Of a stretch of 64,000 nucleotides of DNA, positions 14,471-63,859 are shown in pieces. Within the stretch, counting starts at the first letter, position 1; every line of letters starts with the position of its first letter. This DNA comes from Alphaproteobacteria bacterium (GTDB taxonomy: Bacteria; Pseudomonadota; Alphaproteobacteria; GCA-016699305). Position numbers and translations under genes: made by a program. Below the pieces are notes generated by a model, which saw only the letters and a list, made by a program, of their open reading frames with translations, did no database searches and was not told the origin of the DNA. Location: contig CP064970.1 in assembly GCA_016699305.1 (NCBI GenBank), positions 522,066 to 586,065 of the forward strand, given 5' to 3'.

Positions 14471-14495
14471 AAGAAGGATCATGTAGCCGATCAGC

Positions 14496-24900: not shown

Positions 24901-24965
24901 TAAGTTCGGCGGAGTGGTGCCAGCCGCCCTGCTTAGAATCATGTCGATGACGACAGAGGTCAGAT

Positions 24966-25924: not shown

Positions 25925-25959
25925 ATGGCTCAAGCCTTCACTGTGCGAAGCAAGAAAAT

Positions 25960-27595: not shown

Positions 27596-27604
27596 GAGCG
27601 CGTC

Positions 27605-29617: not shown

Positions 29618-29705
29618 GCTTGCCCTTTAAGTTTTTTCAATTCTTTGTTGTCATCTTTTGTAATCAAAAGTTGAGTTACATCTCTTGATGAAAGGGGTTA
29701 CGGAA

Positions 29706-30269: not shown

Positions 30270-30305
30270 CCATCCTTACTCATCATCCTTTCCAGGAGAA
30301 CAGAC

Positions 30306-32750: not shown

Positions 32751-32777
32751 GCAGAGCAAGAGGGGACGCGCGTCGCC

Positions 32778-33671
32778 ATGCTGATGAACCTGCCCGATGG
32801 AATCGATTCTGTCCCCATGGCAGAGCATGCGACCCGTCCCCGTGAATTCGCCTTCACTCCTCATGACTTCACTTATCTGGCCGAGTTGGTCACGCAGCAC
32901 ACCGGCATCCGTCTGCCGCCCGAAAAGAAAGAAATGCTGTATGGCCGCTTGTCGCGCCGATTGCGCCATCTGGGGCTTGGAAGTTTTGGCGACTATCGCG
33001 CCTTACTGGAAGGCCCCGATGGCGAGCAGGAAATCACGCACACCATCAACGCCCTGACCACCAACCTGACCGGGTTCTTTCGTGAAGCGCATCACTTCGA
33101 CCATCTGGCCAAAGTGGCGTTGCCACAGATTTTAGAAGCTCAAAGCCAAAGCGGCACGCGCCGCCTGCGCCTATGGTCGGCGGGTTGCTCGACAGGCCAG
33201 GAACCCTATTCCATCGCCATGACCTTGCTGGCGAGCATGCCACAGCGCAATCAGTGGGACGTGCGGATCCTGGCGACAGATCTGGACAGCCAGGTTCTGC
33301 AGCATGCGCGCGCGGGTTGCTATGATCGTGGATTGGCTGAAAAAATTCCCGCGAATTGGCGATCCGCCTATGCCGAAAGCCATCCAAACGGCCAGATGCG
33401 CATGGCCAGGTCCTTGCGAGAGATCATCACCTTCAATCACCTAAACCTGATGCATCCTTGGCCGATGCGCGGACCTTTCAGCGTCATTTTTTGCCGCAAC
33501 GTGGTGATCTATTTCGACAAGCCAACCCAAAGAATATTATTCGACCGCATGGCCGACCTGCTGACCCCGCGCGGCTATTTGTATATCGGCCATTCCGAAA
33601 CCTTGTTCAACGTCTGCGACCGCTTTGAGGCATGCGGAAAAACCATATATCGCAAAAAGGAAGACGCATGA
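32778..33671 (+). CDS. cheR: chemotaxis protein methyltransferase CheR
   Basis: SAM-MTase motif (LRLWSAGCSTGQEPYSIAM) and the CheR N-terminal helical domain. Confidence 0.93.
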   Translation: MLMNLPDGIDSVPMAEHATRPREFAFTPHDFTYLAELVTQHTGIRLPPEKKEMLYGRLSRRLRHLGLGSFGDYRALLEGPDGEQEITHTINALTTNLTGFFREAHHFDHLAKVALPQILEAQSQSGTRRLRLWSAGCSTGQEPYSIAMTLLASMPQRNQWDVRILATDLDSQVLQHARAGCYDRGLAEKIPANWRSAYAESHPNGQMRMARSLREIITFNHLNLMHPWPMRGPFSVIFCRNVVIYFDKPTQRILFDRMADLLTPRGYLYIGHSETLFNVCDRFEACGKTIYRKKEDA

Positions 33672-34300
33672 GCTTGGTCACGACCATCGAACGCCGCGCA
33701 CCGCGCGATAAGCAACCTATTTTCGTATCGCGTTACTTCGACTCTCAAATCGACGGCATGGCCGTGACGGTCCTTCCCGCACAACATGCCATCAGCGCCA
33801 GTCCAGATGAGGTCCTTGTGACTGTGCTGGGAAGCTGCGTGGCCGCCTGCATCCACGACCCAGTGATGAATCTGGGCGGGATGAACCATTTCATGCTGCC
33901 GGGCGAGGCCATGAGCAATTGGAGCGACGCGAACCGCGAGATGCGCTACGGCCACACGGCCATGGAAAAGCTGATCAACGACCTGCTCTCGCGCGGGTGC
34001 CGCAAAGAACGCTTTGCCATCAAGCTGTTCGGCGGTGCCAGCGTCATTCAATCGCCGATCCCCGTGGGCGAACAGAACATTATCTTCGTGCGGCGCTATC
34101 TGCGCGACGAAGGGCTTAGCATCATGGCCGAAGACCTGGGCGGATTTCATGCGCGGCGCATCTATTTTCGCGCCAGCGCGGGCAAGGTGGACCGCCTACT
34201 TCTGAAGCGCCAGGAAGACGAGACGATCTTCACCAACGAACTGTCCTTGCGCCAGACTCTGCGTCAAGCCGACATGTCTGGCAGCGTGGAGTTGTTCTGA
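33668..34300 (+). CDS. cheD: chemoreceptor glutamine deamidase CheD
   Basis: …VLGSCVAACIHDPVMNLGGMNHFMLP… is the CheD catalytic Cys region. The start overlaps the cheR stop (ATGA). Confidence 0.8.
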   Translation: MSLVTTIERRAPRDKQPIFVSRYFDSQIDGMAVTVLPAQHAISASPDEVLVTVLGSCVAACIHDPVMNLGGMNHFMLPGEAMSNWSDANREMRYGHTAMEKLINDLLSRGCRKERFAIKLFGGASVIQSPIPVGEQNIIFVRRYLRDEGLSIMAEDLGGFHARRIYFRASAGKVDRLLLKRQEDETIFTNELSLRQTLRQADMSGSVELF

Positions 34301-35352
34301 TGGCCGTGCGCGTGCTGATTGTGGACGACTCCGCCCTGATGCGCCAAATGCTGACCAGCCTGTTGCATGGCGACGATCTGCATGTGGTGGGCGCGGCCGA
34401 GAACCCCTTGGTGGCACGAGAGATGATCAAGGCCCTAAACCCCGACGTGTTGACCCTGGACGTGGAAATGCCGCGCATGGACGGGTTGGATTTCTTGTCG
34501 CGGCTGATGTCCTTGCGACCCATGCCGGTTGTGATGATCTCGTCCTTGACCCAGGAACACGCCGAAGCCGCCTTACGCGCCCTAGAACTAGGGGCGGTGG
34601 ATTGCATCGCCAAACCACAAACGGATCTGGCCAAGGGAATGGAGGCCATGCGCGAGGATATGCGTAGCCGAATCCTGGCCGCCGCCAAAGCGCGTGTTCG
34701 ACCTTTGACCTCGCGCACGCCCAAGACCAAACCAGCGCATGGCGCGGTGCCGTTTACCTCCAGCGAGAAGATCGTGGTGATAGGCGCATCCACCGGCGGG
34801 GTGGAGGCCCTGACCGAAGTGCTCTGCGCCCTGCCCGCCGCAAGTCCGGGCATTTTGGTGGTTCAGCATATGCCGCCTTTGTTCACGGCCTCATTCGCCA
34901 AACGCCTGGACGGACTGGCCGCGCTAAGCGTTGTCGAAGCGCGCGACGGCACACGCATCATGCCCGGACATGTGCATATCGCGCCGGGCAGCATGCATCT
35001 GGAACTTGCGCGTAGCGGCGCGGATTATATGTGCCGCGTTCATGACGGGCCCTTGGTGTCGGGGCATCGGCCTTCGGTGGATGTCTTATTTCATTCCGCC
35101 GCGCGTTGTGCCGGAGCCAACGCGCTGGGCGTCATCCTAACCGGCATGGGCCGCGACGGCGCGGAAGGTCTGTTAAAAATGCGCCAAACCGGCAGCGCGA
35201 CGGTGGGCCAAGACGAATCCAGCTGCGTCGTCTATGGCATGCCCAAAGCCGCCTATGACCTGGGCGGCGTGGCCCAACAACTGCCCCTTGATCGCATCGC
35301 CGAATCCATCCTGTCATATTCCCACGAAGCACGTCAGGCCTTGCGCGTTTAA
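34300..35352 (+). CDS. cheB: chemotaxis methylesterase/deamidase CheB
   Basis: N-terminal REC (VLIVDDSALMR…LDVEMPRMDG) plus a C-terminal CheB methylesterase domain (GASTGG…GMPKAA). Confidence 0.95.
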   Translation: MAVRVLIVDDSALMRQMLTSLLHGDDLHVVGAAENPLVAREMIKALNPDVLTLDVEMPRMDGLDFLSRLMSLRPMPVVMISSLTQEHAEAALRALELGAVDCIAKPQTDLAKGMEAMREDMRSRILAAAKARVRPLTSRTPKTKPAHGAVPFTSSEKIVVIGASTGGVEALTEVLCALPAASPGILVVQHMPPLFTASFAKRLDGLAALSVVEARDGTRIMPGHVHIAPGSMHLELARSGADYMCRVHDGPLVSGHRPSVDVLFHSAARCAGANALGVILTGMGRDGAEGLLKMRQTGSATVGQDESSCVVYGMPKAAYDLGGVAQQLPLDRIAESILSYSHEARQALRV

Positions 35353-37395: not shown

Positions 37396-37797
37396 ATGGC
37401 TATTGCCCTGCAAAATCTTTTGTCCAAGCGCATGTCTTACCTGATGCAGCGTCAGGACGTGATCGCGCGCAATGTCGGGAATGCCGACACCGCAGGATAC
37501 CGCGCGCAAGACTTGACGCCGTTTCAGCAAATCATGTCGGCAAGCGGCGGCGGGTCGCCCACCGGATTGCGAGTCACCAATGCGCGCCATATCACGGCGG
37601 CTGGCGGTTTGGCGGGCGCGGGGGCCACGGCGGTGAACGAGCGTAAGCCCTATGAGGTTCTACCCTCGGGCAATTCCGTGTCCTTGGAACATGAAATGTT
37701 GAAGCTGGCCGAGACCACACAAGACTACAGCGTGACGACGTCGATTTATCGCAAGCTGCATGGCTTGTTCCGCACCGCGCTAGGTAAGGGCGCATAA
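37396..37797 (+). CDS. flgB: flagellar basal-body rod protein FlgB
   Basis: 133 aa. Rod N-terminal motif (RQDVIARNVGNADTAGYRAQDL). Confidence 0.85.
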   Translation: MAIALQNLLSKRMSYLMQRQDVIARNVGNADTAGYRAQDLTPFQQIMSASGGGSPTGLRVTNARHITAAGGLAGAGATAVNERKPYEVLPSGNSVSLEHEMLKLAETTQDYSVTTSIYRKLHGLFRTALGKGA

Positions 37798-37826
37798 CGA
37801 AAACAGCCAGGGGAGAAGGTCGAAAA

Positions 37827-38261
37827 ATGGCAAATCGCGACTCCACCACCGGCGATGTAATGGCTCCCATGCGCCAGGCGGCCTATGGCCTGAAGGCGCA
37901 AGGACAAAGACTGCGCGTGATCGCGGAAAACATGGCCAATGCCGACACCACCGCCGACACGCCCGGCGGCACGCCCTATCAGCGTCAGATCAGCACCTTT
38001 CGCAATGTCCTGGATCGCGTTTCGGGCATGCGCCATGTGGAATTTGGCGGCGTGCGCACGGATACCACCGATTTTCAGAAACGCTATCAGCCCGGACACC
38101 CGGCGGCGGACAAGGACGGCTATGTGCTGATGCCCAATGTCCAGCCGCTGGTGGAGATGATGGATATGCGCGAAGCCCAGCGCAGTTATGAAGCCAATCT
38201 CAACATCGTCGATGCCGTCAAGCAGGTCGTCCGCCAGACATTGGACGTGCTGCGTGGCTAA
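37827..38261 (+). CDS. flgC: flagellar basal-body rod protein FlgC
   Basis: AENMANADTT…PGHPAADKDGYVLMPNV…EMMDMREAQRSYEANLNIV is typical FlgC. Confidence 0.9.
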   Translation: MANRDSTTGDVMAPMRQAAYGLKAQGQRLRVIAENMANADTTADTPGGTPYQRQISTFRNVLDRVSGMRHVEFGGVRTDTTDFQKRYQPGHPAADKDGYVLMPNVQPLVEMMDMREAQRSYEANLNIVDAVKQVVRQTLDVLRG

Positions 38262-38292
38262 CCGCTAGGTCGAAGAAGGGAGAGCATCCGCC

Positions 38293-38610
38293 ATGATCGC
38301 GAATATCAATTCCGCCTTATCCGCCTATCGGAATACCATCACCGGAGGCGAAGGATCGTCAAAGAACTTGGCCAGTGCCGCCACCGAAGCCGGCGACTCC
38401 TTCGGCGGAGTCCTGGCCGGCATGGGAAGCCCGCTGATCGGCGCGCTCAAGAACGGCGAAAAAGCCATGATGGATACCGCCTCGGGCAAAGGGAACCTTG
38501 CCGCCTTGGTCAGCTCGCTCAGCGAAGCCGACATCATGCTGCAAACCGTCTCAACCGTCCGCGACAAAGCCATCCAGGCCTATCAAGACATCATGCATAC
38601 GGCAATTTGA
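38293..38610 (+). CDS. fliE: flagellar hook-basal body complex protein FliE
   Basis: 105 aa. The C-terminus (LQTVSTVRDKAIQAYQDIMHTAI) matches the FliE signature. Confidence 0.8.
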   Translation: MIANINSALSAYRNTITGGEGSSKNLASAATEAGDSFGGVLAGMGSPLIGALKNGEKAMMDTASGKGNLAALVSSLSEADIMLQTVSTVRDKAIQAYQDIMHTAI

Positions 38611-49818: not shown

Positions 49819-49992
49819 TTACGGGAAAAGGCTTAACAAACGCTGATAGAAGGTCTGATCAATCTTCGTGCCCAGACCGCTTAGCGCGCCAAGAATGGCG
49901 ATCGAAACCATGCCCGCGACCAAGGCGTATTCGATGGATGTCGCGGCGGCTTCATCTTTGAATAATGCTTTAAAGTCTAGGAGTTCGTACAT
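49819..49992 (-). CDS. Flp/Fap family type IVb pilin precursor
   Basis: 57 aa, MYELLDFKALFKDEAAATSIEYALVAGMVSIAILGALSGLGTKIDQTFYQRLLSLFP, carries the Flp motif (TSIEYALVA). It is below the ORF-track length cutoff. Found by reading the reverse strand. Confidence 0.75.
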   Translation of the reverse strand: MYELLDFKALFKDEAAATSIEYALVAGMVSIAILGALSGLGTKIDQTFYQRLLSLFP

Positions 49993-50129: not shown

Positions 50130-50282
50130 CTTATGGAAGCGCGGCGTCGACCTTGCTAAAGGTGTTCGACAGTTTCGGACCAAGGGCTGTCAACACACCG
50201 ACGATCGCAACGGCAATCAGGGCAGCGATCAAGCCATATTCAATGGCGGTGGCGCCCGATTCATCTCTTAGCATCTTCATCA
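50130..50282 (-). CDS. Flp/Fap family type IVb pilin precursor
   Basis: 50 aa, MMKMLRDESGATAIEYGLIAALIAVAIVGVLTALGPKLSNTFSKVDAALP, with a canonical G/ATAIEYG prepilin-peptidase site. Below the ORF-track cutoff. Confidence 0.75.
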
Positions 50283-50283
50283 T

Positions 50284-50700
50284 GGGACATTCCTCCGTTC
50301 CCTAGTTGACCGACGGTACCGTACTGATTTATTCGATGGGTCTTTCAAACCCACGATGTCATCATAGCGTTACAGTACTTAAATAATCGTAAAAAAACCG
50401 AACAATCATCATTAATATGCAGTAAATTCTTAGATAAAATTCTATTTCAATTTTATTTAAAGTCAGTTAATTATAGTATTACTTGATATAAGCAATATTT
50501 TTAATTAGAATATTTTTATCATTGTACTAATATTATCATATAAAGACAGGATATGTCATAGATAATGTTACATTAAATTTGATTTATTCCAATCGATCCA
50601 TACCTTAAATATATTTCATATTTTTTTATAACTGGAGTGACATTTCCATTCATTATGGAAAAGCGGGAACTTCTTTTTAGAGATTCCATTGAAGCAACGC
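50284..50700 (-). promoter_or_regulatory. extremely AT-rich (about 25% GC) upstream region of the flp pilin genes; probable promoter and regulatory region
   Basis: About 400 bp of A/T-rich sequence with many TATA/TTAA runs, directly 5' of flp gene 2. The ORF 50573..50947(-) drawn through it is unlikely to be real. Confidence 0.35.
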
Positions 50701-50933
50701 ATGTGTTGCTTGGCTTGATTCTAGAAAACGGCCTTCTTTGAGGGCAACTAATCCAGGCCGGGTCCGAACCGATTTGGGGCCGGCCTACCCCCATGCTAGA
50801 CACAATAAAACCGTTACTCCCCACGATGTTAGTCAGCATGAAGAGCTTGCACAACGATAGGCGGGCGTAGCGTAAACCCGCTACGACCACACCACAAACA
50901 GATGGTAGGGACTGGGCAGGTGCTACGCTCTTC

Positions 50934-52187
50934 CTACCCAGCCTCATAGCTCAGCACTTGTCCGCGCGGCGTGGTGATAGACAGTTTCCGCCCATGTCTA
51001 TTTGGCAAAGATTCGACTCGGCCCAGAGTGTGCGTCTTGATACCGACAGCATGGGCCAGGCTAGTGATCGTGGCAACGGCCTTGGGATCGCAGACGATCT
51101 CCATGCCCCAGCCCATATTGAAGGAGGGATACATATCCTCATCCGGCAACTGGGTCTCACGCTGGACGAACTGGGAGAAGGGCGAGACAGGCACATCGTC
51201 TTTGACATAATGCACGCCCTTGCCAAATCCCAGGCCTTTGGTTTGACCGCCGCCTGTGTTGTGGATCACGGCGGATAGCTGCGAGCGGCACTCGCGGAAT
51301 ATCAGCGCCATCAATGGCAGATAGGTGCGCGTGGGGGAAAGCAATGCATCTTGAACCGTCATGCCATTCAGTTCAGGAATTCCATCGGCCAGGTGGCACG
51401 GGCCGGCATAGGCTTTTTCGCCCAAACGCGCCTCGAATGTGTCGGGATAAGCGCGATAATCGGAGTGCAGCAGGCGATGGCGCAGCAAGGTCAGCCCGTT
51501 GGCGCGGACGCCTGAATTGGGACGATCTTCCCAAACCGCCTGACCGTCCGAAGCCAATCCCACAATGACATGGCCGGGTTTGACTTTGCTGGCATTGATG
51601 AAATCACGGCGATCCATCTCGGTGACCATGGCCACATTTAGCAATAGGCTGGGCGTTAGGTCGCTGACATCGGCGGTCTCGCCAGATCCGATGCGAAGAT
51701 GAATAGCGTCTTGGTACCCACAGATTTCTTTCGTCACGTTATGGATATGCGCGGCGAAATCATGATAACCGCCGATGATGGCCGCCAGAATAGGATCGGC
51801 ATCGGCGCGCGAAATTCGATTGCGATCCACCACATTCATCACATGAAACGGGCCGAGCGCTCCGACGCAAAGCAAGTCATCCGTATTCATCACCAGGGCA
51901 TCTTGCGCCAGGCCAGCAAAAATGCTTTTGGCCAATTCGGTGCGCACCTGGGCAGATGTGTGAGGTTGAATCTGTGTCAGATAGACCAGCCACGCCAATG
52001 CGGCCTTGGTCCCTGCCCCGTCCACGTGATCGAGCATGCATGTGCCTAGATTGCCGCTGAGGCTGGGCCAAGCCTTACAAAAAGCCCCCGGGAAAATGCT
52101 CTGATCGTTTTGATCAACCACGTCATGCACGGCTTCTTTGCTTGTGGACACACCAAGTTTTGCGTAAGCGGCGGACTCGACGGCCAT
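50934..52187 (-). CDS. AIR-synthase-related protein (PurM-like superfamily, not canonical PurM)
   Basis: 417 aa with PurM-superfamily N- and C-domain character (…DAGVD-like HVDGAGTKA…, Gly-rich C-terminal region). It does not match the canonical PurM N-terminus or length. Confidence 0.55.
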   Translation of the reverse strand: MAVESAAYAKLGVSTSKEAVHDVVDQNDQSIFPGAFCKAWPSLSGNLGTCMLDHVDGAGTKAALAWLVYLTQIQPHTSAQVRTELAKSIFAGLAQDALVMNTDDLLCVGALGPFHVMNVVDRNRISRADADPILAAIIGGYHDFAAHIHNVTKEICGYQDAIHLRIGSGETADVSDLTPSLLLNVAMVTEMDRRDFINASKVKPGHVIVGLASDGQAVWEDRPNSGVRANGLTLLRHRLLHSDYRAYPDTFEARLGEKAYAGPCHLADGIPELNGMTVQDALLSPTRTYLPLMALIFRECRSQLSAVIHNTGGGQTKGLGFGKGVHYVKDDVPVSPFSQFVQRETQLPDEDMYPSFNMGWGMEIVCDPKAVATITSLAHAVGIKTHTLGRVESLPNRHGRKLSITTPRGQVLSYEAG

Positions 52188-52515: not shown

Positions 52516-52908
52516 ATGTATCAACGCACCACGCGCAGTATCAGCGTCAGCGTCCAGCCGATTTTCTTGGAGGACGAGTCGGAGCCCGACAGCAATCGCT
52601 ATGTCTGGGCTTACCATATCCGGATCGAGAATAAAGGCCGCGAGACGGTCCAGCTGCGCCAACGCTATTGGAAGATCACCGACGCGCATGGCCATACCGC
52701 CGAACTGCGCGGCGCGGGGGTCGTGGGTGAGCAACCCGTTTTGAACCCAGGCGAAAGCTTTGAATACACCAGCGGAACCCCATTGACGACGCCCACCGGA
52801 ATCATGCTGGGCAGCTATGAGATGTCAACCCAGCAAGGGGAGACCTTCGAAGTCCCAATCCCGCCCTTTTCATTGGACAGTCCGCATCATCCGATGGTCA
52901 GGCATTAG
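52516..52908 (+). CDS. apaG: ApaG (DUF525) protein
   Basis: …YVWAYHIRIENKGRETVQLRQRYWKITDAHGHTAELRGAGVVGEQPVLNPGESFEYTSGTPL… is a very typical ApaG. Confidence 0.9.
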   Translation: MYQRTTRSISVSVQPIFLEDESEPDSNRYVWAYHIRIENKGRETVQLRQRYWKITDAHGHTAELRGAGVVGEQPVLNPGESFEYTSGTPLTTPTGIMLGSYEMSTQQGETFEVPIPPFSLDSPHHPMVRH

Positions 52909-53654
52909 AACGGCATGATGACGTCCAAGACCTGCTGACCGTAACGCGGTTGTTGCACGTCGATGATCTGGCCACGCCCACCATACGAGACTCGGGCTTC
53001 GGCGATCTGGTCGTAATTCACCGAATTGGCCGAGCTGATATCCTCGGGCCGCACAACGCCGGCCACGGTCAATTCACGCATTTCGTAGTTCACCACGATT
53101 TGTTGTTTCCCTTGTAGGACCAGATTTCCATTCGGGAGGACCTGGGTAATCATCGCGGCCACGCGCAATTGAATCGTCTCGCCGCGATCAATTTCGCCCG
53201 AGCCGGAATTGCTGGTTTTGCTGCTCAGATCCACCAGTTTTTCAGGGTCCACCGCATCGGGGAAATATTTGGCCAACTTACTTTCAAAGCCCCATAGGCT
53301 GGGCATGCCCGCGCTGTCGCTATTGTCGCGGCCACGCTTGGTCTTATTCGACATCTTGGCCTTTTCATCCAAGTTGATATTGATGGTCAAGATATCCCCC
53401 ACCCTACTGGCACGCTGGTCACGGAAAAATGCGCGCGAGCCTGCCCGCCACAACGAATTGGGCTGACGATTATCGGGCATCGGCGTGGGCATGGGCAGGC
53501 TGACCGTTTGCGCCTGAGCGGGCGGAGGCGCGATCTGCGCCAGCTTTGGCGCGGAGCCGATCTCCTCGAACCGCGAACCGGCATTGCATCCGGGCAAGGC
53601 CAGGACGGCAATCAAGGCAGCCGTACCCACGGCGCGGCACGAGAAAGGCTTCAT
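52905..53654 (-). CDS. flgH: flagellar L-ring lipoprotein FlgH
   Basis: Lipobox (LPGC) and the FlgH core (…GDILTININ…NGNLVLQGKQQIVVNYEMRELTVAGVVRPEDI…). Confidence 0.9.
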   Translation of the reverse strand: MKPFSCRAVGTAALIAVLALPGCNAGSRFEEIGSAPKLAQIAPPPAQAQTVSLPMPTPMPDNRQPNSLWRAGSRAFFRDQRASRVGDILTININLDEKAKMSNKTKRGRDNSDSAGMPSLWGFESKLAKYFPDAVDPEKLVDLSSKTSNSGSGEIDRGETIQLRVAAMITQVLPNGNLVLQGKQQIVVNYEMRELTVAGVVRPEDISSANSVNYDQIAEARVSYGGRGQIIDVQQPRYGQQVLDVIMPF

Positions 53655-54430
53655 GGAATATCCCCTTGTGTCTGTTGAATCTGGGCAGTTTGACGGCTCT
53701 CTTGCGGCAGATTGACCTCGACCAAACCGCTGCCTATCACGACGGCCTCGATGGTGCGGTTGCTTTGCGTATTCAAGATGCGTACGACCTCGCCCTTAGC
53801 GCCATCTTGTTGCGCGCGGCCTTGCATCGACATGTGCAAAACGGGGGAGCGCACTTCCACCGTCACCGGCTTGCCGCGCAAGACCAGGCGTTCGGCCTGC
53901 ACATCAGCGCGGCGCAGAGGTTGACCGACCAACAAGGCACGGCGCGCCTCCTTACCGATCAACGAACCGGCATCCTGGATGGCATCTCCCGACACGCGAT
54001 CGGCGGGCCATAGCTGGTCTTCAAGGTCCACGGCGCGCACCACCTCGCCCAATTCGATCCGGCGCACAGGAACGGGAAGGCTGATTTGCGTGTTCACGCG
54101 ACCCGTCACCGTCACCACATCCTCACCCGCCGTCAGGCTGGCAGTGAAGAAATTGCGAGATTTCTCATAAGTGATATCCGCAACGCGCGCCATGCCATGC
54201 CCATCGGCAGGCAGCTTTAGACTGATCGTGCTTTGGCCGGGCAAGACGGTCCAGGACGCGCCGTCCACTTTGTCATGCAAGGCTTCCGTCAACAGGCCCA
54301 CCAACGCGGCGCGATCCAGGCTGACCCGGTTATCAGCGCCCGTTGCGATCTGCGGCGCGCCAAACATGACCAAGGCCAACACAGCCATGATCTCGAATCT
54401 AAGTGCTCTTGCTATCTGCCTTCGTGTCAT
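53651..54430 (-). CDS. flgA: flagellar P-ring assembly chaperone FlgA
   Basis: Signal peptide plus a C-terminal SAF/FlgA domain (…VLRGKPVTVEVRS…GEVVRILNTQSNRTIEAVVIG…). Overlaps the flgH start by 4 nt. Confidence 0.75.
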   Translation of the reverse strand: MTRRQIARALRFEIMAVLALVMFGAPQIATGADNRVSLDRAALVGLLTEALHDKVDGASWTVLPGQSTISLKLPADGHGMARVADITYEKSRNFFTASLTAGEDVVTVTGRVNTQISLPVPVRRIELGEVVRAVDLEDQLWPADRVSGDAIQDAGSLIGKEARRALLVGQPLRRADVQAERLVLRGKPVTVEVRSPVLHMSMQGRAQQDGAKGEVVRILNTQSNRTIEAVVIGSGLVEVNLPQESRQTAQIQQTQGDIP

Positions 54431-54457
54431 GTCAGCCCCCGAATGCTTTCTTCACGA

Positions 54458-55243
54458 TTAGCGGAGATTGCTTACTTCCTTGGACATTTCGTCGGCCGTC
54501 CGTATCACGCGCGAGTTCATCTCATAGGCGCGTTGGGCGGTGATGAGATTGGTGATCTCGCTGACGATGTTGACGTTCGACGTTTCCAAAGAACCTTGCA
54601 CAACATTGCCAAATCCCACTGCCTGCGGATTGCCCACCACAGGCGAACCCGAAGCCGGGGTTTCGCGCAACAGATTCTCTCCCAAGGATTCGAGACCGGC
54701 GGGGTTGGGAAATGTGGCCAATTGCAGTTGCCCGACATTGCTGGGCGTCGTCTGACCATCAATTTTCGCCTGAATTTGTCCGCTGGCATTGATGGTGATG
54801 CCGACTGTCCCGGCGGGAATAGTCGCCTGAGGAAGAACGGGATAACCGTCTGCCGAGACGATTGCGCCTTCGGCATTGACCTGGAAGGAACCAGCCCGGC
54901 TATAGGCGGTTGTTCCATCGGGCATCTGCACTTGGAAGAATCCCCGACCGTTGATGGCCATGTCCAAGGGATTATCGGTCACGGTGAAATTGCCTTGCTC
55001 GTTGATGCGATACACCGAGGCCGTTTTGACACCCGAACCAAGCTGAATGCCCGAAGGCAAAATGGTGCCCGCATCCGATGATGTCGAACCAACGCGACGA
55101 ACCTGCTGATACAACAGATCTTGAAACTCCGCGCGTTGGCGCTTGAAACCTGTGGTGGACATATTGGCGATATTGTTGGAAATGACTTCCACATTGGTCT
55201 GCTGAGCCAGCATGCCGGTGGCGCCGATATTCATCGTCCTCAT
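54458..55243 (-). CDS. flgG: flagellar distal rod protein FlgG
   Basis: MRTMNIGATGMLAQQTNVEVISNNIANMSTTGFKRQ… and the C-terminus …LITAQRAYEMNSRVIRTADEM…. Confidence 0.95.
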   Translation of the reverse strand: MRTMNIGATGMLAQQTNVEVISNNIANMSTTGFKRQRAEFQDLLYQQVRRVGSTSSDAGTILPSGIQLGSGVKTASVYRINEQGNFTVTDNPLDMAINGRGFFQVQMPDGTTAYSRAGSFQVNAEGAIVSADGYPVLPQATIPAGTVGITINASGQIQAKIDGQTTPSNVGQLQLATFPNPAGLESLGENLLRETPASGSPVVGNPQAVGFGNVVQGSLETSNVNIVSEITNLITAQRAYEMNSRVIRTADEMSKEVSNLR

Positions 55244-55289
55244 GGCATCAATCCTTCCCTCATCGTGTTCTTACTCGATCTCTGGTTCA

Positions 55290-56012
55290 TCAGGACACAC
55301 GGCCCAGCTGCCGCACGGCATTGCGTTGACGTTCGGTCTCTGTCTCCAGCATGCGCTGGGTCTGCTGGTACGAACGCAAGGCCTCGATCATGCGTGTCAT
55401 TTCCACGACCGGCTGAACGTTCGAGGCCTCGATGACGCCTTGGACAACATGGGAATTTTCGTCTGCCTGCCCGGCCTCGTCGGTCATGAAGTAACCGCTT
55501 TGGTCCGGATCCAAGGCTTGCGGGTTCTCGAAACGGGTTAGTTGCAGTTTTCCTACCTGCCCCAATTCCGTCGAGATGGTCCCATCCCCCTTAATCTGTA
55601 CATTCTGCGCCCCCGTGGGCAGAACGGCGGGGGCATCGCCTTGTAGCAGAACTTTATCGCCCGAAGCCGTGGTCAATTCGCCTTCGCTGTTCAAGGTAAA
55701 GGCGCCCGCGCGCGTGTAACGCTTACCCTCTGCCGTCTGAACAGAAAGCCAAGCATCACCCTGCACAGCCACATCCAAGGCGTTGTCCGTATGCTGCAAG
55801 GGACCGGCGCGATCATCGCGCCAAGTGGCACGATCCAATACAAATTGTAGCGGACGTGTCTCGCCCGGAGGCAGAATGGGCGCATCTTCAGCAACCAGTT
55901 CCTGGCGCTTAAAGCCCGTGGTGTTCATATTGGCCAAATTATTGGCCAGAACATCTATACGCCGCCTTAGGACATCCTGGCGCGACAACGCTATCAGTAA
56001 TGGCGATTCCAT
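55290..56012 (-). CDS. flgF: flagellar proximal rod protein FlgF
   Basis: …DVLANNLANMNTTGFKRQ… and rod C-terminal motif (VQGVIEASNVQPVVEMTRMIEALRSYQ). Confidence 0.9.
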   Translation of the reverse strand: MESPLLIALSRQDVLRRRIDVLANNLANMNTTGFKRQELVAEDAPILPPGETRPLQFVLDRATWRDDRAGPLQHTDNALDVAVQGDAWLSVQTAEGKRYTRAGAFTLNSEGELTTASGDKVLLQGDAPAVLPTGAQNVQIKGDGTISTELGQVGKLQLTRFENPQALDPDQSGYFMTDEAGQADENSHVVQGVIEASNVQPVVEMTRMIEALRSYQQTQRMLETETERQRNAVRQLGRVS

Positions 56013-56098
56013 GACGCCTCACATTCCACGCGGTTATTAAACCAAACTCACCGCATGTCGTGATGCAAGGCGCGTGCCAAGTTGGAAGAAAGCAATCT

Positions 56099-56608
56099 TC
56101 AGAATGATCGCTTTCGACGATATTGAGCGTCTTTGAACAAATTAGCCGCCAGGGCCGGCTCCCATCGATCGCCGTTATCCAATAAGCGTGATTTATCAAA
56201 AAACAATTCCGGCCTCGTTTCTGTTGAGAATTCAAAATTGGGGCCTTCAACAACCGCATCCACTGGACAAGCCTCTTGGCATAGGCCGCAATAAATACAC
56301 TTCGTCATGTCTATATCATAACGTGTTGTGCGGCGGCTGCCATCCTCAGCACGAGGGGCGGCTTCGATGGTAATGGCCTGAGCCGGACATACCGCCTCAC
56401 ACAGCTTACATGCGATACACCGCTCTTCCCCACTGGCGTAACGGCGCAACGCATGTTCCCCACGGAATCGGGGGCTGAGCGGTCCCTTTTCATAAGGGTA
56501 GTTCAAGGTGACCTTGGGACGCAGGACGTAGCGCAAGGTCAGCCACATGCCGCTTGCGATCTCGGCAAGAAACAAGCGGTTAAAAAACGCCCGCAAGGAA
56601 GCAGCCAT
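56099..56608 (-). CDS. nuoI: NuoI-type 2x[4Fe-4S] ferredoxin (NADH-quinone oxidoreductase subunit I homolog), stand-alone
   Basis: [48 protein letters not shown]…[34 protein letters not shown] is near-identical in pattern to the NuoI/Nqo9 signature. No other nuo genes are adjacent. ATG at 56608 follows GAGAAAGG. Confidence 0.85.
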
Positions 56609-56625
56609 CAAGCTACCTTTCTCGC

Positions 56626-57720
56626 TTAGCCGCCCCCGCCCATGCCGCCGCCTTGGCTTTGTGTGGTTGATAGAACCACGGTAGCATGCATGATCGACAA
56701 CATGGCCCAGACGATCACGCCGGCCACCAATACCATGCCGCCGAACCGCGCGACATTAGCCTGGTTTTGCAGCTCAATGACCTGCTCTTCGATCCATTCA
56801 TGCGTGATCTGCTCAATCACCGTGCCGACATCGCCCCGTTCCGAGAGGATTTCAAGATCCAAAGCCACCATAGGATCGGGAAAGCCAAAGTTGCCAGCGC
56901 GCAGCGCTTCGCCGAGATTGCGACCGCGCAAAACTTCCTGACGCGCTGTGCTTAGACGCTCTTGCAGCCAAGGCGTCGCTTCTTCCTCAAGGATTTCCAG
57001 GGCACGTTTCAAAGGAACCTGAGCGCCCAACAGTGACGATATACCCAGCAAGAAGGCACTGCCTTGCCACACGCGATACCACGACCAAGGAGGGAACTTG
57101 TCGAGTTTCACACGCAGCGATCCGCGCCAATGCGGCAAGGTACTGGCGATCACGGCCATAATCGCGAAGAGCCCCAACAGGGTCCAGATGCCATAATTGT
57201 GGATATAGTCGGACACCATGACCAATCCGCCCATGCTCTCCAACACCGCCTTGGATGCAAGTGTCTTCATCTTGTCGATCAGCACATAGCCGAACATGAA
57301 CAAGACCGCCGAAAGCAGCAGCAGCATGAAGAACGGATAACTGACGGCGTAAATGATGGCCTCTTTCATCTTTCGGGCCTGTTCGCCGATGCTCATAATG
57401 GCACTGAAGGATTTCGAGACGGTGCCCGATTCTTCGCCCGAGCGAATCATGTACAGCTCGGCCACCGGCACCCAGCCCGACATAGCATCCGAAAGCGAAT
57501 CACCGGCGCGATCGCGGCTAAGCCATTCCTGCAAGGCGATCGCCTCGGCCCGGTCAGGCTTTTTTCCCATTTCGGAGTAGTTGTACCAAAGCCGCTCTAA
57601 CGAACGAGACAAAGCCTCGTTCATATTCAGCATACCTTGCAGCTTTCGATAAATGCGCCAACGACGGCGACGATTATTGCGCAACGTCCATTGCGCCATA
57701 CGGCGCCCTAAATCAGCCAT
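56626..57720 (-). CDS. type II secretion / type IV pilus platform protein, GspF/PilC family (two T2SSF repeats)
   Basis: 364 aa, polytopic. Two repeats with the GspF signature (…[15 protein letters not shown]… and …[17 protein letters not shown]…). ATG at 57720 preceded by AGGAGG. Overlaps the upstream ATPase gene's stop. Confidence 0.8.
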
Positions 57721-59861
57721 TTTTCAATGCCTCCTAGGCGATTCTCGACTTCACGGACCTCTCGGTCACGCGCCAGAAAGCCCACGTCAAACTCCGCATC
57801 ACGAGCGTCAATCTCACCGCGTCGCAGCTTGTCCAGCGCGTGCCACATCATGGTAATGCCGCCTTTTCCTTCGGGAGCGGGCGCCAACCAATACTGTCTG
57901 GCGGACTCCATCTTATTCTTCTGTAACCAATCCATCAACCTATCATCTGCTTCAGCCACTTCCGCGATGATCGTGCGTCCGGAACGACCTTGATAACAGT
58001 GTGGGCAGCCCTGGGGATGAGCAAAATAGACCTGCCCCAAATCCGGTTCATGTAAATCCAGCATAGAAGGATCAATGGGCCGCCAATCATCTGGGTTTTC
58101 GCTGGGTTTGCGGCGATATTGACGCTGGGCATCCATGACGGACAAGGCCGCGCGCACACGCTGCGCATATATCTTAAGCGTTGAATCTATCTGCACAGCT
58201 TCACGCATAGGCATGCGGCAATGACGACACAGGGTGCGCATCAGACGTTGGCAGATCAATCCGCGCAGCAGATTCGGGTCATAGACCAGATAATCGTCGA
58301 TCCCGAGATCGCGCAGACGCTGTGGAATCGCGATCGCCGAATAGACGTGCAAGGTGGTGTACACCTGGCGTCCTGTCAGCGTCAGACGAAACGCGAAGGT
58401 TGCCGTTTGCATGTCGCGCATTTCGCCCAACATCACGATATCGGGATCCAAACGCAGCGCGCAACGCATGACTTCAAGGAATGAGCGTTCGCGCTGTTCG
58501 TCTTTGACGGAGGCCGACACACCGACCTGACGTCCGCCAAGGACGCCGCCTTCGGGAGGGTCTTCGATCATCAGACAGTTCAGCTGCATGTTGGTCTCGG
58601 CCATACGGCGATTGAGCATCACGCGCAACGTGGTCGTCTTACCTTGGTTCACAGGGCCCGAAAAGACGCGCATGGCGCCCGGGATGGCGCGTAACTGACG
58701 CACCAAGTCGGTCTGATCCTGGGAAAAACCCAGCGAATCGACATCCGCCGCCACAAAATCCGGACCGAATATCTTCGCGCTGTCATATTGCAGACGCATA
58801 TCCAGATAACGCCCACCATCCGCCAAAGGAATCCACTGGCAGCGCACCGCGATGACATTGTCAGGCAGAATCAGCGTATCGGGACCGCTCATTGGAATGA
58901 GCATGGCGGCTTGCGGTTCCAGCCAGTTCGCCGTAGAGCCTGACTGTGCCGCCGAATGCGAATAGATGGAGGAAAGGACCTGCTCGCCTTCTTTTTGCGT
59001 CCATGTCTCCCACAGACGCAGCTTACCATCGACGCGGAATTCCACTTTGGTGCGATCGGCCGTCGATTCGATGTGAATATCGCTGGCTCCCAGCTCAGAT
59101 CCTTTTTGTAAAGTCTCGACAATGCGCCGACGCACGGCGTTGTCGTCCAGTCGGATCGACGTGGCATTTTTATCGGCATAATGATAGGCGCGGCGAATAA
59201 CGTCCGGCGTCACATATCGCGGCGGTTCAACCGTAAAACCCTGACGGATGGCCAATTGGCGAACCGAGGTTACCAAGGGCGAATTTTTGTGGCTTTCACT
59301 AACCAGCCACAGCCCCGAGTCAAACAAGGCGCAGACAGTGCGCGATTCGGCCGGAACGCGCAATGGCCCACCCACTGCCGTCAGCACCATGCCGCTAAAG
59401 ACGATTCTCTGCGAACCGATAACAGCCTTTTCTTCAACGGAAGACTTAATATCCATATCCAAGGGAGGTAGATCGACCTCTGAAATATCCTGACCTTCCT
59501 TCTTGGCCTCTGTATTGGAGCCGCGCAGATGCGCTCGAGCGATAGGTGGAGTCACCAAGCCACGCGCCGGACCAGTTCCAGCCAAACTGCCCGGCGCCCC
59601 TGAAGGAGAAGCTTTGAGAGGTAAGGACGCAGGCGCGTCCGAGAGGATTCCTGAATACGGCACGGCAGCTTTGGGCGTTTGCGCCTTAGACGGCTGAGCC
59701 ACAGACGGCTGAGCCACGACCGATGACGGCTTAGAACTGCTAAAGAGAGCCCCACGCTTCGTCCCGGACGAGGGTTTGTCAGCGGCCTTGTTCTGCTCCT
59801 GACTAGAAGAAGACGCATTCAGGCGCCCACGCAAGGAATCAAAAAACTCTCCCATCCGCAT
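57708..59861 (-). CDS. GspE/PilB-family secretion ATPase with a roughly 250-300-aa S/P/A/Q-rich N-terminal extension
   Basis: Walker A (SGPVNQGKTTTL), Asp/His boxes and the tetracysteine motif (CRHC…CPHC) of GspE/PilB-type ATPases. The N-terminal third is low complexity. Start chosen at MRMGEFF (ATG 59861, GGAGG 6 nt upstream). The tool ORF extends to 59981. Confidence 0.85.
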   Translation of the reverse strand: MRMGEFFDSLRGRLNASSSSQEQNKAADKPSSGTKRGALFSSSKPSSVVAQPSVAQPSKAQTPKAAVPYSGILSDAPASLPLKASPSGAPGSLAGTGPARGLVTPPIARAHLRGSNTEAKKEGQDISEVDLPPLDMDIKSSVEEKAVIGSQRIVFSGMVLTAVGGPLRVPAESRTVCALFDSGLWLVSESHKNSPLVTSVRQLAIRQGFTVEPPRYVTPDVIRRAYHYADKNATSIRLDDNAVRRRIVETLQKGSELGASDIHIESTADRTKVEFRVDGKLRLWETWTQKEGEQVLSSIYSHSAAQSGSTANWLEPQAAMLIPMSGPDTLILPDNVIAVRCQWIPLADGGRYLDMRLQYDSAKIFGPDFVAADVDSLGFSQDQTDLVRQLRAIPGAMRVFSGPVNQGKTTTLRVMLNRRMAETNMQLNCLMIEDPPEGGVLGGRQVGVSASVKDEQRERSFLEVMRCALRLDPDIVMLGEMRDMQTATFAFRLTLTGRQVYTTLHVYSAIAIPQRLRDLGIDDYLVYDPNLLRGLICQRLMRTLCRHCRMPMREAVQIDSTLKIYAQRVRAALSVMDAQRQYRRKPSENPDDWRPIDPSMLDLHEPDLGQVYFAHPQGCPHCYQGRSGRTIIAEVAEADDRLMDWLQKNKMESARQYWLAPAPEGKGGITMMWHALDKLRRGEIDARDAEFDVGFLARDREVREVENRLGGIEKWLI

Positions 59862-60303
59862 TAGCCTCCAAGTCCTGACCATCACCCCATAGACGGGACA
59901 GCTTAGTCCGGGCGTACGATTCTTGCCATACCTGTCCGCCTCACATTCAAATATAAAATGGCTTGTACAGCCTATAGACAACGTCTTTATAAATTATTGC
60001 AATACGGCACATGAACAAGCGAGCCAAGGAGATACCATCCATCACATTGATTAAATGCAATATTTTAGAGTCATAAACGACGTGATTCAGACTTACCGTG
60101 CGCCGCCACAGGGGATGGCAGCGGTCGGCCCCGGCTCGGACGCCGTCAACACGGCCATCGACTTTGCGCATAAGGCATGTCCTCGACCGTCGCCAGCCTA
60201 ACGCCCAGTGAGCAGGAGCTTTTGTTCAATCTCTCGGCGGGAAAATAACTCCTAGAACGCAATCCCCCCTACATTTTTCTTCCTGATCGGCAAGCGAGAC
60301 ACG

Positions 60304-60335
60304 CTTATCCGCTTTCCTTCTGGCAAGCCCCATAT
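60304..60335 (+). promoter_or_regulatory. candidate RpoH (sigma32)-type heat-shock promoter for dnaJ
   Basis: CTTATC, 18 nt, then CCCCATAT (60328-35). The -10 matches the sigma32 CCCCATNT consensus, but the -35 is imperfect (CTTA versus CTTG). Lies about 115 nt upstream of the dnaJ ATG. Confidence 0.3.
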
Positions 60336-60449
60336 ATATATTGGTCGCCATGATCTGCCACGGAGAGGGCCTTCATCTGGTATCCTCATCGACCGGCAAA
60401 TTCAGCTTATGGAAATAGGCCGACAACATAGGGACATGGTCGTGATCGG

Positions 60450-61577
60450 ATGAAGCAGGATTTCTATGAACTACTGGGTGTGGCGCGTGACGCCGGCACC
60501 GAGGACATTAAGACCGCCTATCGCAAATTAGCGATGGCGCATCATCCCGACCGCAACCCGGGCAACAAAGAATCCGAAGAGCATTTCAAGCGGATCAACG
60601 AGGCCTATGACGTTCTGCGCGATCCCCAAAAACGGAGCGTGTATGACCGCTATGGCGCGGGTGGTCCCGGCGGCGCGGGGGCCGAGGCGCAGGGCTTCGA
60701 TTTTGGCAATATCGGCGGGATCTTTGAGGAAGTTTTTAGTGAATTCGTCGGCGCGCGGGCAGGCGGGCGCGGCGGCGCGGGTCCGGCGCGCGGCTCCGAT
60801 TTGCGCTATGACATGGAAATCTCCTTGGACGAGGCATTTAGCGGCATAGAGCGCGAGATACGTATTGCCAGCGCCGCCGCATGCGATAGCTGCAAAGGCA
60901 GCGGATCGAAACCCGGCACACAGCCGCAAACCTGCCCCACCTGTCGTGGCCATGGCCGCGTGCGCGTGCAGCGCGGCTTTTTTACTTTGGAGCAGGCTTG
61001 TCATGCATGCCAAGGCGTCGGGCGGATCATTAAGGACCCCTGCCCTTCATGCAAAGGCGCGGGCCGCAAACGTGTCGAACGCCAGCTTTCCATCAGAATT
61101 CCCCCCGGGGTCGAAGACGGAACCCGCATCCGCCTGACGGGCGAGGGCGAGGCCGGACCCAACGGCACCCCTTCAGGCGATTTGTATGTTGTGCTGGGAA
61201 TCCGCGCCCATCCCTTCTTTCAGCGCGAGGGGGCCAGCATCTATTGCCGCGCGCCCATTCCCATGACCATCGCGGCGCTGGGTGGCCAGATCGAGGTGCC
61301 GACCATCGACGGATCGCGCATCATGCTCGACATACCGGTAGGAACCCAGACCGGCCAACAATTCCGCCTACGCGCCAAGGGCATGTCCGTCCTACACAGC
61401 GAATCGCGCGGCGAGATGTATGTGCAATCCATCGTGGAGACCCCGACAAACCTGACCCGGCGGGAAGAGGAAATCCTGCGCGAATTCGCCCGCGAACGCG
61501 GCGAACGCGAACATGAGGATACCGAAGGGGGTTTTCTGTCGAGGATCAAAGAATTCTGGAAAGATATCAGTGAATAG
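60450..61577 (+). CDS. dnaJ: molecular chaperone DnaJ (type I: J domain, G/F region, four CxxCxGxG zinc motifs)
   Basis: YRKLAMAHHPDRNP (HPD motif), a Gly-rich linker, and CDSCKGSG / CPTCRGHG / CHACQGVG / CPSCKGAG. Confidence 0.95.
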   Translation: MKQDFYELLGVARDAGTEDIKTAYRKLAMAHHPDRNPGNKESEEHFKRINEAYDVLRDPQKRSVYDRYGAGGPGGAGAEAQGFDFGNIGGIFEEVFSEFVGARAGGRGGAGPARGSDLRYDMEISLDEAFSGIEREIRIASAAACDSCKGSGSKPGTQPQTCPTCRGHGRVRVQRGFFTLEQACHACQGVGRIIKDPCPSCKGAGRKRVERQLSIRIPPGVEDGTRIRLTGEGEAGPNGTPSGDLYVVLGIRAHPFFQREGASIYCRAPIPMTIAALGGQIEVPTIDGSRIMLDIPVGTQTGQQFRLRAKGMSVLHSESRGEMYVQSIVETPTNLTRREEEILREFARERGEREHEDTEGGFLSRIKEFWKDISE

Positions 61578-62467: not shown

Positions 62468-63859
62468 TTACTTGCTTACGCGCAGATTCGACAACGAGTC
62501 GCCGATGGCTCTGAACGCATCGTTCAGCTCGGTTTCCGTCGGCGAGTTGAAGTAGTAGTCCGACTGCGTGGCACAGCTCTTCAACAGGTTCTTAATGCTG
62601 GTGCCAGGGTTACCGAACGCGATGGTATACACTTGGATGTTTTTGCTCTTCATCGCGTTACAAACGGTGGTCAGTCGTTGATTTAACTTCGTCACCGCCG
62701 TGGACGAGCTGGTAGTGCCCAGCAAGCCTTGAGACAGCCATCCATAGGCGGTAAAGACACTGCTGCTCATCGTGTTCTCACCGTCCGTCATGATCACGGC
62801 GGCTTTGTTCATGTTCGGCGCGTTGTAGTCAAGCGGCAGACCATTGGCATCCATCTCACCGCCCCAGAGACCGCGCCAACGCGGTGACAACATACGCCAT
62901 CCCCATACCGCGCCATAATTGACATGCGTGTTCCCCGTGGCCTGCATGGTATTGATGGCATTGACGATGGCCGTCTTGCTGGCGGTCAGGGGCTTCATCT
63001 CTTGCGAACAGTATTTATTCGGGCCGTTATCTGTGCCCAATGGAGTGTTGTAGCTGCCGTCCCAACCATTAATCCAGTCATTGCCGCTGCTATCCGCCCA
63101 ATAATACGCGTTGAAGGGCGCAACCGAGGGCGGATCGTCGGTAGTGTCGCGATTGGACGCCGTGCGCGCCATCACACAGCCCATCCATGATGTCGGCCCC
63201 CAGTTCAGGCCGGCATAATGCGTGCCGTCGAGCCATGCGGTGCGCGAGGAACCGATATTGACACTCTGCGCGAAAGGCACCAGGCCAATCCACAGATCGT
63301 CTACCGATTCCTTCCCACCGTATAGAATATCGACCAGCAGATTGGCGGCATTTTTTAAACTACTAAGCTTCGAGCCTGCCATGGAGCCGGTATTGTCCAG
63401 CACCATCACCAATTCCAAGCCGTTGACGGCGCGGGTGATTTCCGATTGCACGCTGACCGTGACGTTGTTGATGTTGAAGATGCGCATGAAGATCGTCGGC
63501 ACCGTGGCCGAGGCCGTCATGGTCAGCACCGTCTTGTCGCTATTCACGGCGATCGACGAGCTGGTGATGCTGGCGTCCAGGTAATGCGCCGGAAAGTTGG
63601 CGCTTAGATATTTGTTGAACTCTGTCTCAACATTGGCCGTACTCACGGTCGATCCAGCCGCCAAGCCCGCCGCGTCCACCGCCGTGGATAGGCGCGATTG
63701 CACCAATTGCGTACGGGCGGTATCGATCGACAGGCCCACGAAGCCGCTGAGCGCAACAAAGGACAGAGCCACCAAGATGGCCGCCGATCCCGACTCGTCA
63801 TTGGCCAGGACACGGAAGTTGCGGCAGATGGTGCTGCCAATTTTCTTTTGTGCGGACAT
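62468..63859 (-). CDS. TadG-like pilus-assembly protein (TadE/G-like N-terminal helix plus vWA domain)
   Basis: N-terminal pseudopilin-like hydrophobic segment (ESGSAAILVALSFVALSGFVGLSIDTA) followed by a vWA MIDAS region (LVMVLDNTGSM…). 463 aa. Strong GGAGGA RBS. Confidence 0.75.
   Translation of the reverse strand: MSAQKKIGSTICRNFRVLANDESGSAAILVALSFVALSGFVGLSIDTARTQLVQSRLSTAVDAAGLAAGSTVSTANVETEFNKYLSANFPAHYLDASITSSSIAVNSDKTVLTMTASATVPTIFMRIFNINNVTVSVQSEITRAVNGLELVMVLDNTGSMAGSKLSSLKNAANLLVDILYGGKESVDDLWIGLVPFAQSVNIGSSRTAWLDGTHYAGLNWGPTSWMGCVMARTASNRDTTDDPPSVAPFNAYYWADSSGNDWINGWDGSYNTPLGTDNGPNKYCSQEMKPLTASKTAIVNAINTMQATGNTHVNYGAVWGWRMLSPRWRGLWGGEMDANGLPLDYNAPNMNKAAVIMTDGENTMSSSVFTAYGWLSQGLLGTTSSSTAVTKLNQRLTTVCNAMKSKNIQVYTIAFGNPGTSIKNLLKSCATQSDYYFNSPTETELNDAFRAIGDSLSNLRVSK

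Follow-up and report, generated by a model that had tools for sequence, protein, structure and literature searches.

Why should the assembly ATPase and the platform protein of a pilus or secretion machine, together with a ferredoxin-like subunit of respiratory complex I, be encoded directly upstream of flagellar rod genes? This question is raised by a 64,000-nucleotide stretch (the window in the following) of contig CP064970.1, the single 2,060,775-bp (2.06 Mb) contig of an alphaproteobacterial metagenome-assembled genome (MAG), in which seven co-directional open reading frames (ORFs) occupy 52.9–59.9 kb of the minus strand: an ATPase gene, a platform gene, nuoI and the four genes of a flgF-flgG-flgA-flgH operon (flgFGAH; Table 1). 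The preliminary description of this region regarded the first three genes as fused onto the head of the flagellar operon and proposed that they might serve as a motor for secretion or pilus assembly in minimal form, or as an accessory energising or regulatory unit expressed together with the rod genes. All seven genes were confirmed in position, and the Pfam and NCBIfam results agreed with the domain calls made there. Our results indicate, however, that the ATPase and the platform protein are likely the displaced PilQ/PilR motor of an R64-variant type IVb pilus, and that their adjacency to the rod genes is positional and not functional.

The ATPase features a T2SSE domain, Walker A and B motifs, Asp and His boxes, and a CxxC...CxxC tetracysteine motif (C545/C548/C619/C622), which places it in the PilB/GspE class. 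The Walker A sequence GPVNQGKT, the motifs EDPPE, DPD..GE.RD, and TT.H, and the four cysteines were invariant in 25 family members, including the window protein. The first ~150 residues are rich in Ser, Ala, and Pro and are not conserved in sequence within the family; the reading frame is open as far as a TTG at position 59981, and two ATG codons, at 59861 and 59855, with a GGAGG just upstream of them, are candidate starts. Among the solved structures, BfpD was the best match of the ATPase (4.4e-68, residues 159–556), ahead of EpsE/GspE (7.6e-37) and PilB (2e-22), and the N-domain of TcpE (5e-4) was the sole PDB match of the platform protein. Matches to the ATPase on plasmids were mostly proteins of IncI plasmids named 'PilQ type IV pilus ATPase' (~30% identity, 1e-38 to 1e-44; GspE 2e-27), the top plasmid match being located on the Methylovorus plasmid pMsip01 (34% identity, 1e-71), at a locus annotated to encode a TcpQ-family protein, PilN, PilO2, PilP, the ATPase, a T2SSF protein, a pilin, PilM, and PilV. 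Both window proteins are closer in sequence to components of type IVb pili than to those of type II secretion systems (T2SS), type IVa pili, or Tad systems. Judged by these comparisons, they appear to be orthologues of PilQ and PilR, forming a BfpD/BfpE-class motor of the R64 thin-pilus variant of type IVb pili.

Two other identities were considered and rejected. The ATPase scored by a wide margin below the cutoff of every GspE, PilB, TfpB, ComGA, PilT, and TadA model. For T2SS, the equivalog models for GspE (TIGR02533, 170.7 vs. a cutoff of 630; NF007755, 152 vs. 617) and for GspF (TIGR02120, 65 bits vs. a cutoff of 424 for the platform protein) failed, and no Gsp context was found in the window or in the related genomes. 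The designation 'GspE-like/GspF-like' chosen previously thus holds for the GspE/PilB class, whereas the family is that of BfpD/PilQ and BfpE/TcpE/PilR of type IVb pili. The combination of TadA (CpaF), TadB, and TadC was rejected on the basis of the TadA/CpaF model TIGR03819 (24.7 bits vs. a cutoff of 373), the presence of the tetracysteine motif, and a single platform protein with two T2SSF stretches. The latter two features had already been noted in the preliminary description, as had the conclusion that the pair is not the Tad motor, and all three stand. Because of the TIGR03819 score, the GenBank name of the ATPase, 'Flp pilus assembly complex ATPase component TadA' (QQR69583.1; accessions for the region are QQR69583.1 and QQR69581.1), is inaccurate.

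To place the pair in its genomic context, ~77 related loci were compared, comprising three long contigs, 72 loci of species-representative genomes with the source names Micavibrio, Rhodospirillaceae, 'Bdellovibrionales', and Alphaproteobacteria MAGs, and two further loci (those of the top-scoring match and of a full-length match). Genes at these loci were mapped by tblastn with reference proteins. More than 600 homologues of the ATPase were present in the protein collection, the closest non-self sequences being 55–66% identical, and identity to the ATPases within complete type IVb pilus loci was 55–64%. At every locus with enough flanking DNA (L001–L004, L006–L074, L084, and L085), the orthologues of the pair lie within the order TcpQ/PilL-PilN-PilO2(PF06864)-PilP-PilQ-PilR-PilS. 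The PilN secretin and PilO2 precede the pair wherever the upstream DNA was long enough, and PilP and TcpQ/PilL do so nearly always; in most loci, PilS/bundlin-type pilins follow, often together with a PilV-like protein, and DotD, TraI, DotB, and IcmT are encoded further upstream. This gene order agrees with that of the R64-type operons annotated on the IncI plasmid pHU590 and on pMsip01, as well as with the published operon of the R64 variant of type IVb pili (PMC3984277).

None of the ~77 related loci has NuoI, Flg, or DnaJ genes adjoining the pair. A closer relative with the same arrangement was not found either; P0002 and P0024 both have a complete pil context. As the preliminary description had supposed, the arrangement is unusual: it was seen at one of ~78 loci examined, namely in the window alone.

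The related loci also revealed a conserved chromosomal cluster in ~70 species-level Micavibrio-like genomes (L001–L004, L006–L074, and L085; e.g., L003, positions 2140–18440). Its genes follow the order DotD, TraI (DotC-like; we take it to be the R64 counterpart of DotC), DotB, IcmT, TcpQ, PilN, PilO2, PilP, PilQ, PilR, several PilS/bundlin pilins, and a PilV-like prepilin featuring a C-terminal Peptidase_S74 domain. This combination of Dot/Icm-like and R64-type pilus genes resembles the tra/pil layout of IncI plasmids and would seem to be part of the core gene set of these (predatory) bacteria. In the literature searched, no description of such a cluster in Micavibrio-like bacteria was found: the Micavibrio genome paper refers only to 'multiple dispersed pil genes' and to integrative and conjugative elements, the words 'Dot' and 'Icm' being absent, and in a 2025 review on contact-dependent predation, neither a type IVb pilus nor a type IV secretion system is connected with Micavibrio. 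The cluster could bear on prey attachment or contact-dependent predation.

Detailed comparison of the window pair with 70 PilQ and 68 PilR sequences from complete loci revealed strong conservation. The ATPase keeps all family-invariant columns (138/138), including those of the family-specific N-terminal domain, and 53 of the 59 columns conserved to at least 95%, the exceptions being conservative; the platform protein keeps 44 of 45 family-invariant columns. Frameshifts or truncations were not present in either gene. In neighbour-joining trees rooted on IncI PilQ/PilR, both window proteins fall within the clade and split off later than L069/L071 and the L064/66/67/68 group, whose members all possess complete loci. 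The distance from root to tip matched the family median for both window proteins (PilQ, 0.767 vs. 0.771; PilR, 0.798 vs. 0.791). Since the window pair is nested in a clade whose loci are complete, the complete locus is the ancestral state and the detached one derived. The pair is under normal purifying selection, with no sign of relaxed constraint, and it probably still works as a type IVb pilus motor, because the invariant residues are kept and the branch length is not raised.

The flagellar operon, in turn, seems to have a promoter of its own. The gap of 86 nt between nuoI and flgF contains TGGCACGCGCCTTGCA, which is the only exact match to the sigma-54 consensus TGGCAC-N5-TTGCW in the 64-kb window (0.09 expected by chance), lying 20 nt past the nuoI stop and separated by 51 nt from the ATG of flgF. 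Of the fusion asserted previously, the adjacency of the genes is real, whereas this gap with its perfect consensus separates nuoI from flgF. Comparable sites were found before flgF at the loci of the two closest FlgF relatives examined (L078, TGGCACgattaCTGCA; L079, TGGCACggcagATGCA). These encode FlgF proteins with 50% identity and share the same four-gene order flgF-flgG-flgA-flgH, with flgF being divergent from fliL-fliM; one of them (GCA_027485855.1) carries a complete Dot and type IVb pilus locus on a different contig (L030). Because of the exact consensus in the gap and the similar sites in two relatives, flgFGAH can be regarded as a self-contained sigma-54-type unit with its own predicted promoter. 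This agrees with the flgF operon of Caulobacter, which belongs to class III. The breakpoint of the rearrangement would then lie within ~20 nt upstream of the flgF core promoter. Complete type IV pilus loci in the relatives at every locus with enough flank, along with a separate predicted promoter for flgF, are essentially what the preliminary description had named as evidence that would speak against its own proposal.

The third gene upstream of flgF belongs to a different system. Its product passed the NuoI models NF004539 (296 bits vs. a cutoff of 225) and TIGR01971 (163.6 vs. 113), is 77–85% identical to canonical alphaproteobacterial NuoI, and has both CxxCxxCxxxCP 4Fe-4S motifs readable in the translation. 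The gene for an 82%-identical homologue has the canonical position, between nuoH and nuoJ of a complete nuoA-N operon, whereas the window gene is flanked by the platform gene and flgF. No further nuo gene was annotated in the window, and the 120 best matches included no second NuoI from the 2,060,775-bp contig, which is weak evidence for a single copy. By these measures, the protein is a canonical complex-I subunit encoded outside a nuo operon. The ATPase and platform genes overlap by 13 nt, and nuoI follows the platform stop by 14–17 nt, depending on the nuoI start; the 14-nt spacing suggests that nuoI is probably co-transcribed with the pair.

Searches for other parts of the pilus system in the window were negative. 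No secretin, PilO/PilP, PilS-type pilin, or Dot gene was detected by tblastn (E <= 1e-5), and no Peptidase_A24 domain was found among the Pfam-scanned ORFs, a few ORFs being unscanned or without a match; the statements made earlier that neither a secretin nor a prepilin peptidase accompanies the pair were borne out to this extent. The 588-bp region upstream of the ATPase gene gave noise only when searched for a PilP remnant (tblastn, 62 PilP sequences, E <= 10), and the 74-codon ORF located in it had neither a Pfam match nor similarity to PilP. Flanking repeats or mobile-element signatures around the ATPase–platform–nuoI block amounted to short chance matches only. Furthermore, scans for sigma-70 promoters and terminators gave uninformative results, at or below chance level, with no sigma-70-like site on the minus strand of the 588-bp region.

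Taken together, these results favour the following course of events. In the ancestral state, the pair would have resided in a locus of the type TcpQ/PilL-PilN(secretin)-PilO2-PilP-PilQ-PilR, usually with PilS-type pilins and often a PilV-like gene behind it and with Dot/Icm-type genes usually before it. A lineage-specific rearrangement in the streamlined 2.06-Mb genome would have removed the two motor genes from this pil locus; together with a nuoI gene that is not part of a nuo operon, they would have come to stand between dnaJ and the predicted sigma-54 promoter ahead of flgFGAH. The hexameric assembly ATPase and the inner-membrane platform most likely still power a type IVb pilus, the partner genes for which would be located elsewhere in the genome. 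The genes for the ATPase, the platform, and NuoI are probably expressed as one transcript starting in the 588-bp region, and flgFGAH would be driven by its own predicted sigma-54 promoter.

Several points weigh against this interpretation. The databases contain no close relative of the window genome, the best non-self matches being 66% identical for the ATPase and ~50% for FlgF, and for this reason the rearrangement may be either strain-specific or lineage-specific, and young or old. There is no convincing terminator between nuoI and flgF, so that transcripts from upstream may read through into flgF. The sigma-54 promoter is predicted from the match to the consensus alone, and neither rpoN nor an enhancer-binding activator was seen in the window. 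Any upstream activator or enhancer site for TGGCACGCGCCTTGCA would have to fall within nuoI itself, since the ancestral spacer between fliL and flgF has been lost. Finally, PilN, PilO, PilP, PilS, a prepilin peptidase, and the nuoH-nuoJ junction were searched for in the 64-kb window only, and were absent there as far as scanned.

The most serious competing explanation is that the pair was left stranded: genome reduction would have deleted all other genes of the type IVb pilus (and Dot/Icm) locus, leaving the motor genes partnerless and either non-functional or kept only because nuoI depends on their promoter. We regard this as rather unlikely. The genome is indeed small, no other type IVb pilus or Dot gene lies within 64 kb, and the 120 best ATPase matches include, as weak evidence, no further PilQ-like protein encoded on the 2,060,775-bp contig; in addition, nuoI lies too close behind the platform gene for a separate promoter and could keep the unit transcribed. 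Nevertheless, two motor genes that had lost their partners should show drift, barring a very recent loss, and the kept invariant residues of both proteins, the intact reading frames, and the lack of excess branch length argue otherwise. It is also improbable, if to a greater degree, that the type IVb motor was repurposed in a reduced, predatory-type alphaproteobacterium, where it would remain under full purifying selection after the loss of its cognate secretin, PilO2/PilP, and PilS, and would either drive the nearby Flp/Tad pilins or be co-regulated with nuoI and the rod genes via read-through into flgF. Recruitment of PilQ/PilR specifically to assemble the Flp pilins and the TadE/F/G pseudopilins in place of CpaF/TadB/TadC can be given very little credit. 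Two Flp pilin genes ~6 kb downstream, tadE-F-G ~2.6 kb upstream, and the lack of CpaF, TadB, and TadC in the window would fit such a scenario; Flp pilins, however, are known to be assembled by CpaF/TadA-class ATPases, two relatives (L002 and L085) possess separate complete Tad loci beside the type IVb pilus locus, and the window pair exhibits no sequence shift away from the type IVb family.

The proposal of the preliminary description is now highly doubtful. In that view, the motor and NuoI would work together in a module expressed along with the rod genes, serving either secretion or pilus assembly in minimal form or, as an accessory, the energising or regulation of flagellar assembly. The close spacing of the seven genes, all read in one direction, and the lack of an obvious terminator ahead of flgF would fit such a module, but the arrangement occurs at one of ~78 loci, the orthologues of the pair all reside in complete type IVb pilus loci, flgF has its own sigma-54 consensus promoter, and fliL-fliM take the upstream position in the two closest FlgF relatives examined. 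Moreover, we know of no flagellar system that needs a PilB-class ATPase. The remaining explanation is a chimeric join, the source being a MAG. Misassembly is unlikely here, because a separate short-read assembly in Logan (SRR11674044), probably from the same or a related sample, provides the identical gene order from TadE to Hsp70 on a 26.7-kb contig; the GC content is also even across the junctions, and an artefact of this kind is hardly credible. A displaced, probably still functional PilQ/PilR motor therefore is the reading that we prefer.

Table 1. Location of the pilus motor genes, nuoI, the flagellar operon, and further features in the window.
Feature	Coordinates	Strand	Basis or remark
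ATPase gene, PilQ-type (BfpD-class) type IVb pilus assembly ATPase	57708-59861	-	Pfam T2SSE 2e-52
Platform gene, PilR-type (BfpE/TcpE-class), polytopic	56626-57720	-	Pfam T2SSF, two stretches, 1.5e-23
nuoI, complex I 2x[4Fe-4S] subunit	56099-56608/56611	-	NCBIfam NF004539
Sigma-54 (-24/-12) promoter consensus TGGCACGCGCCTTGCA	56064-56079	-	Exact TGGCAC-N5-TTGCW match
flgF-flgG-flgA-flgH operon (rod / P-ring chaperone / L-ring)	52905-56012	-	Pfam and NCBIfam
flgF	55290-56012	-	Flg_bb_rod, D1 and C-terminal domains
flgG	54458-55243	-	TIGR02488 above cutoff
flgA, P-ring chaperone	53651-54430	-	TIGR03170 above cutoff
flgH, L-ring	52905-53654	-	NF001305 above cutoff
Intergenic region, 588 bp, ATPase gene to divergent dnaJ	59862-60449	.	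Presumed promoter region of ATPase-platform-nuoI
74-codon ORF, uncharacterised, dnaJ-ATPase intergenic	59947-60171	-	Gene call in Logan assembly
dnaJ	60450-61577	+	Divergent from ATPase gene
TadG-like pseudopilin with VWA domain	62468-63859	-	Pfam Tad and VWA
Two Flp/Fap pilin genes	50131-50283 and 49819-49992	-	Pfam Flp_Fap 6e-20 and 1e-11
flgB-flgC-fliE	37396-38610		After hslVU
che operon cheY-cheA-cheW-mcp-cheR-cheD-cheB, then hslVU	27047-35352		
flhB	5425-6555		Alone beside hybrid histidine kinase gene

The further gene content of the window corresponds to that of a core chromosome, with rplL, lptD, the che operon, hslVU, a squalene-hopene cyclase gene, ychF, pth, and the gene for ribosomal protein L25; two very large ORFs are taken to be putative rpoB and rpoC. 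Among MAGs obtained from activated sludge, a circular one described as 'novel Micavibrionales (2 Mbp)' has been presented as an example of genome reduction (Singleton et al. 2021, PMC8012365). Flagellar genes of the window occur in small blocks spread among the housekeeping genes: flhB, flgBC-fliE, and flgFGAH are scattered in this way, as are the Flp pilin genes and tadG. The genes tadE and tadF lie just past the window end, as seen on the Logan contig, which extends 1.4 kb further, and the tadE-tadF-tadG(VWA) group is ~12 kb apart from the Flp/Fap pilin genes. No CpaA-F/TadB/TadC machinery was found in the window; in the relatives L002 and L085, the Tad genes are united in one complete locus (CpaF, TadB, and TadC) separate from the type IVb pilus locus. 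The Flp pilins and TadE/F/G belong to a separate Tad-type system and not to the PilQ/PilR pair.

Two further regions of the window were conspicuous. A low-GC stretch at 24000–26700 (0.52 vs. ~0.58 elsewhere) is located upstream of rplL and includes ORFs without a Pfam match (24881–25516 and 25960–26610, minus strand). The region 50573–52187 (minus strand), between apaG/flgH and the Flp pilin genes, encodes a 417-aa protein with only sub-threshold matches to the N and C domains of AIR-synthase-related proteins (22 and 19.6 bits); behind it lies a 124-aa ORF without a Pfam family and with a low GC content at third codon positions (0.46).

To explain the odd neighbourhood, it is enough to assume that operons have been fragmented in a streamlined genome, and the window provides a clear example of such fragmentation, with pil, tad, flg, and nuo genes scattered. 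The consequences for annotation are direct: the ATPase should be designated a PilQ/BfpD-class type IVb pilus ATPase, rather than 'TadA' or 'GspE-like'. A tempting but false connection of pilus motor and complex-I ferredoxin to the flagellar rod is thereby removed, which matters little for mechanism. As a machine component, the pair is of a known kind; its position is unusual and seems to be unique.

Compared to known systems, the window proteins share with GspE/GspF of T2SS the superfamily, the domains, and the zinc-binding tetracysteine, but their scores fall far under the equivalog cutoffs and are weaker than those for BfpD/PilQ, and neither Gsp pseudopilins nor GspC/L/M are encoded at any related locus. 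With TadA(CpaF)/TadB/TadC of Flp (type IVc) pili, they have the ATPase superfamily and the proximity of Flp pilin and TadE/F/G genes in common; they differ from them in the tetracysteine and in the single two-repeat platform protein, which takes the place of two one-repeat proteins, and the relatives possess a separate Tad locus. NuoI corresponds to the NuoI (Nqo9/TYKY) subunit of respiratory complex I in passing the equivalog models, in its ~80% identity to operon-encoded NuoI, and in both 4Fe-4S motifs, and deviates in not being encoded between nuoH and nuoJ and in being the product of the sole nuo gene annotated in the window. BfpD/BfpE of the bundle-forming pilus of enteropathogenic Escherichia coli and TcpT/TcpE of the toxin-coregulated pilus of Vibrio cholerae belong to the same type IVb class and include the best solved-structure relatives, although these systems represent another type IVb variant with distant sequences and different accessory proteins (BfpC instead of PilO2). 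Relative to the thin pilus of R64 and other IncI plasmids, the window ATPase is only ~30% identical to IncI PilQ, the genes are located on the chromosome of Micavibrio-like alphaproteobacteria, and the window pair is detached from every other pil gene, with nuoI next to it. What it has in common with the R64/IncI thin pilus is a T2SSE ATPase carrying the tetracysteine and a T2SSF platform with two repeats, and the loci of its relatives exhibit the order TcpQ/PilL-PilN-PilO2(PF06864)-PilP-PilQ-PilR-PilS...PilV, adjoining Dot/Icm-type (MPF_I-like) genes, just as on IncI plasmids.

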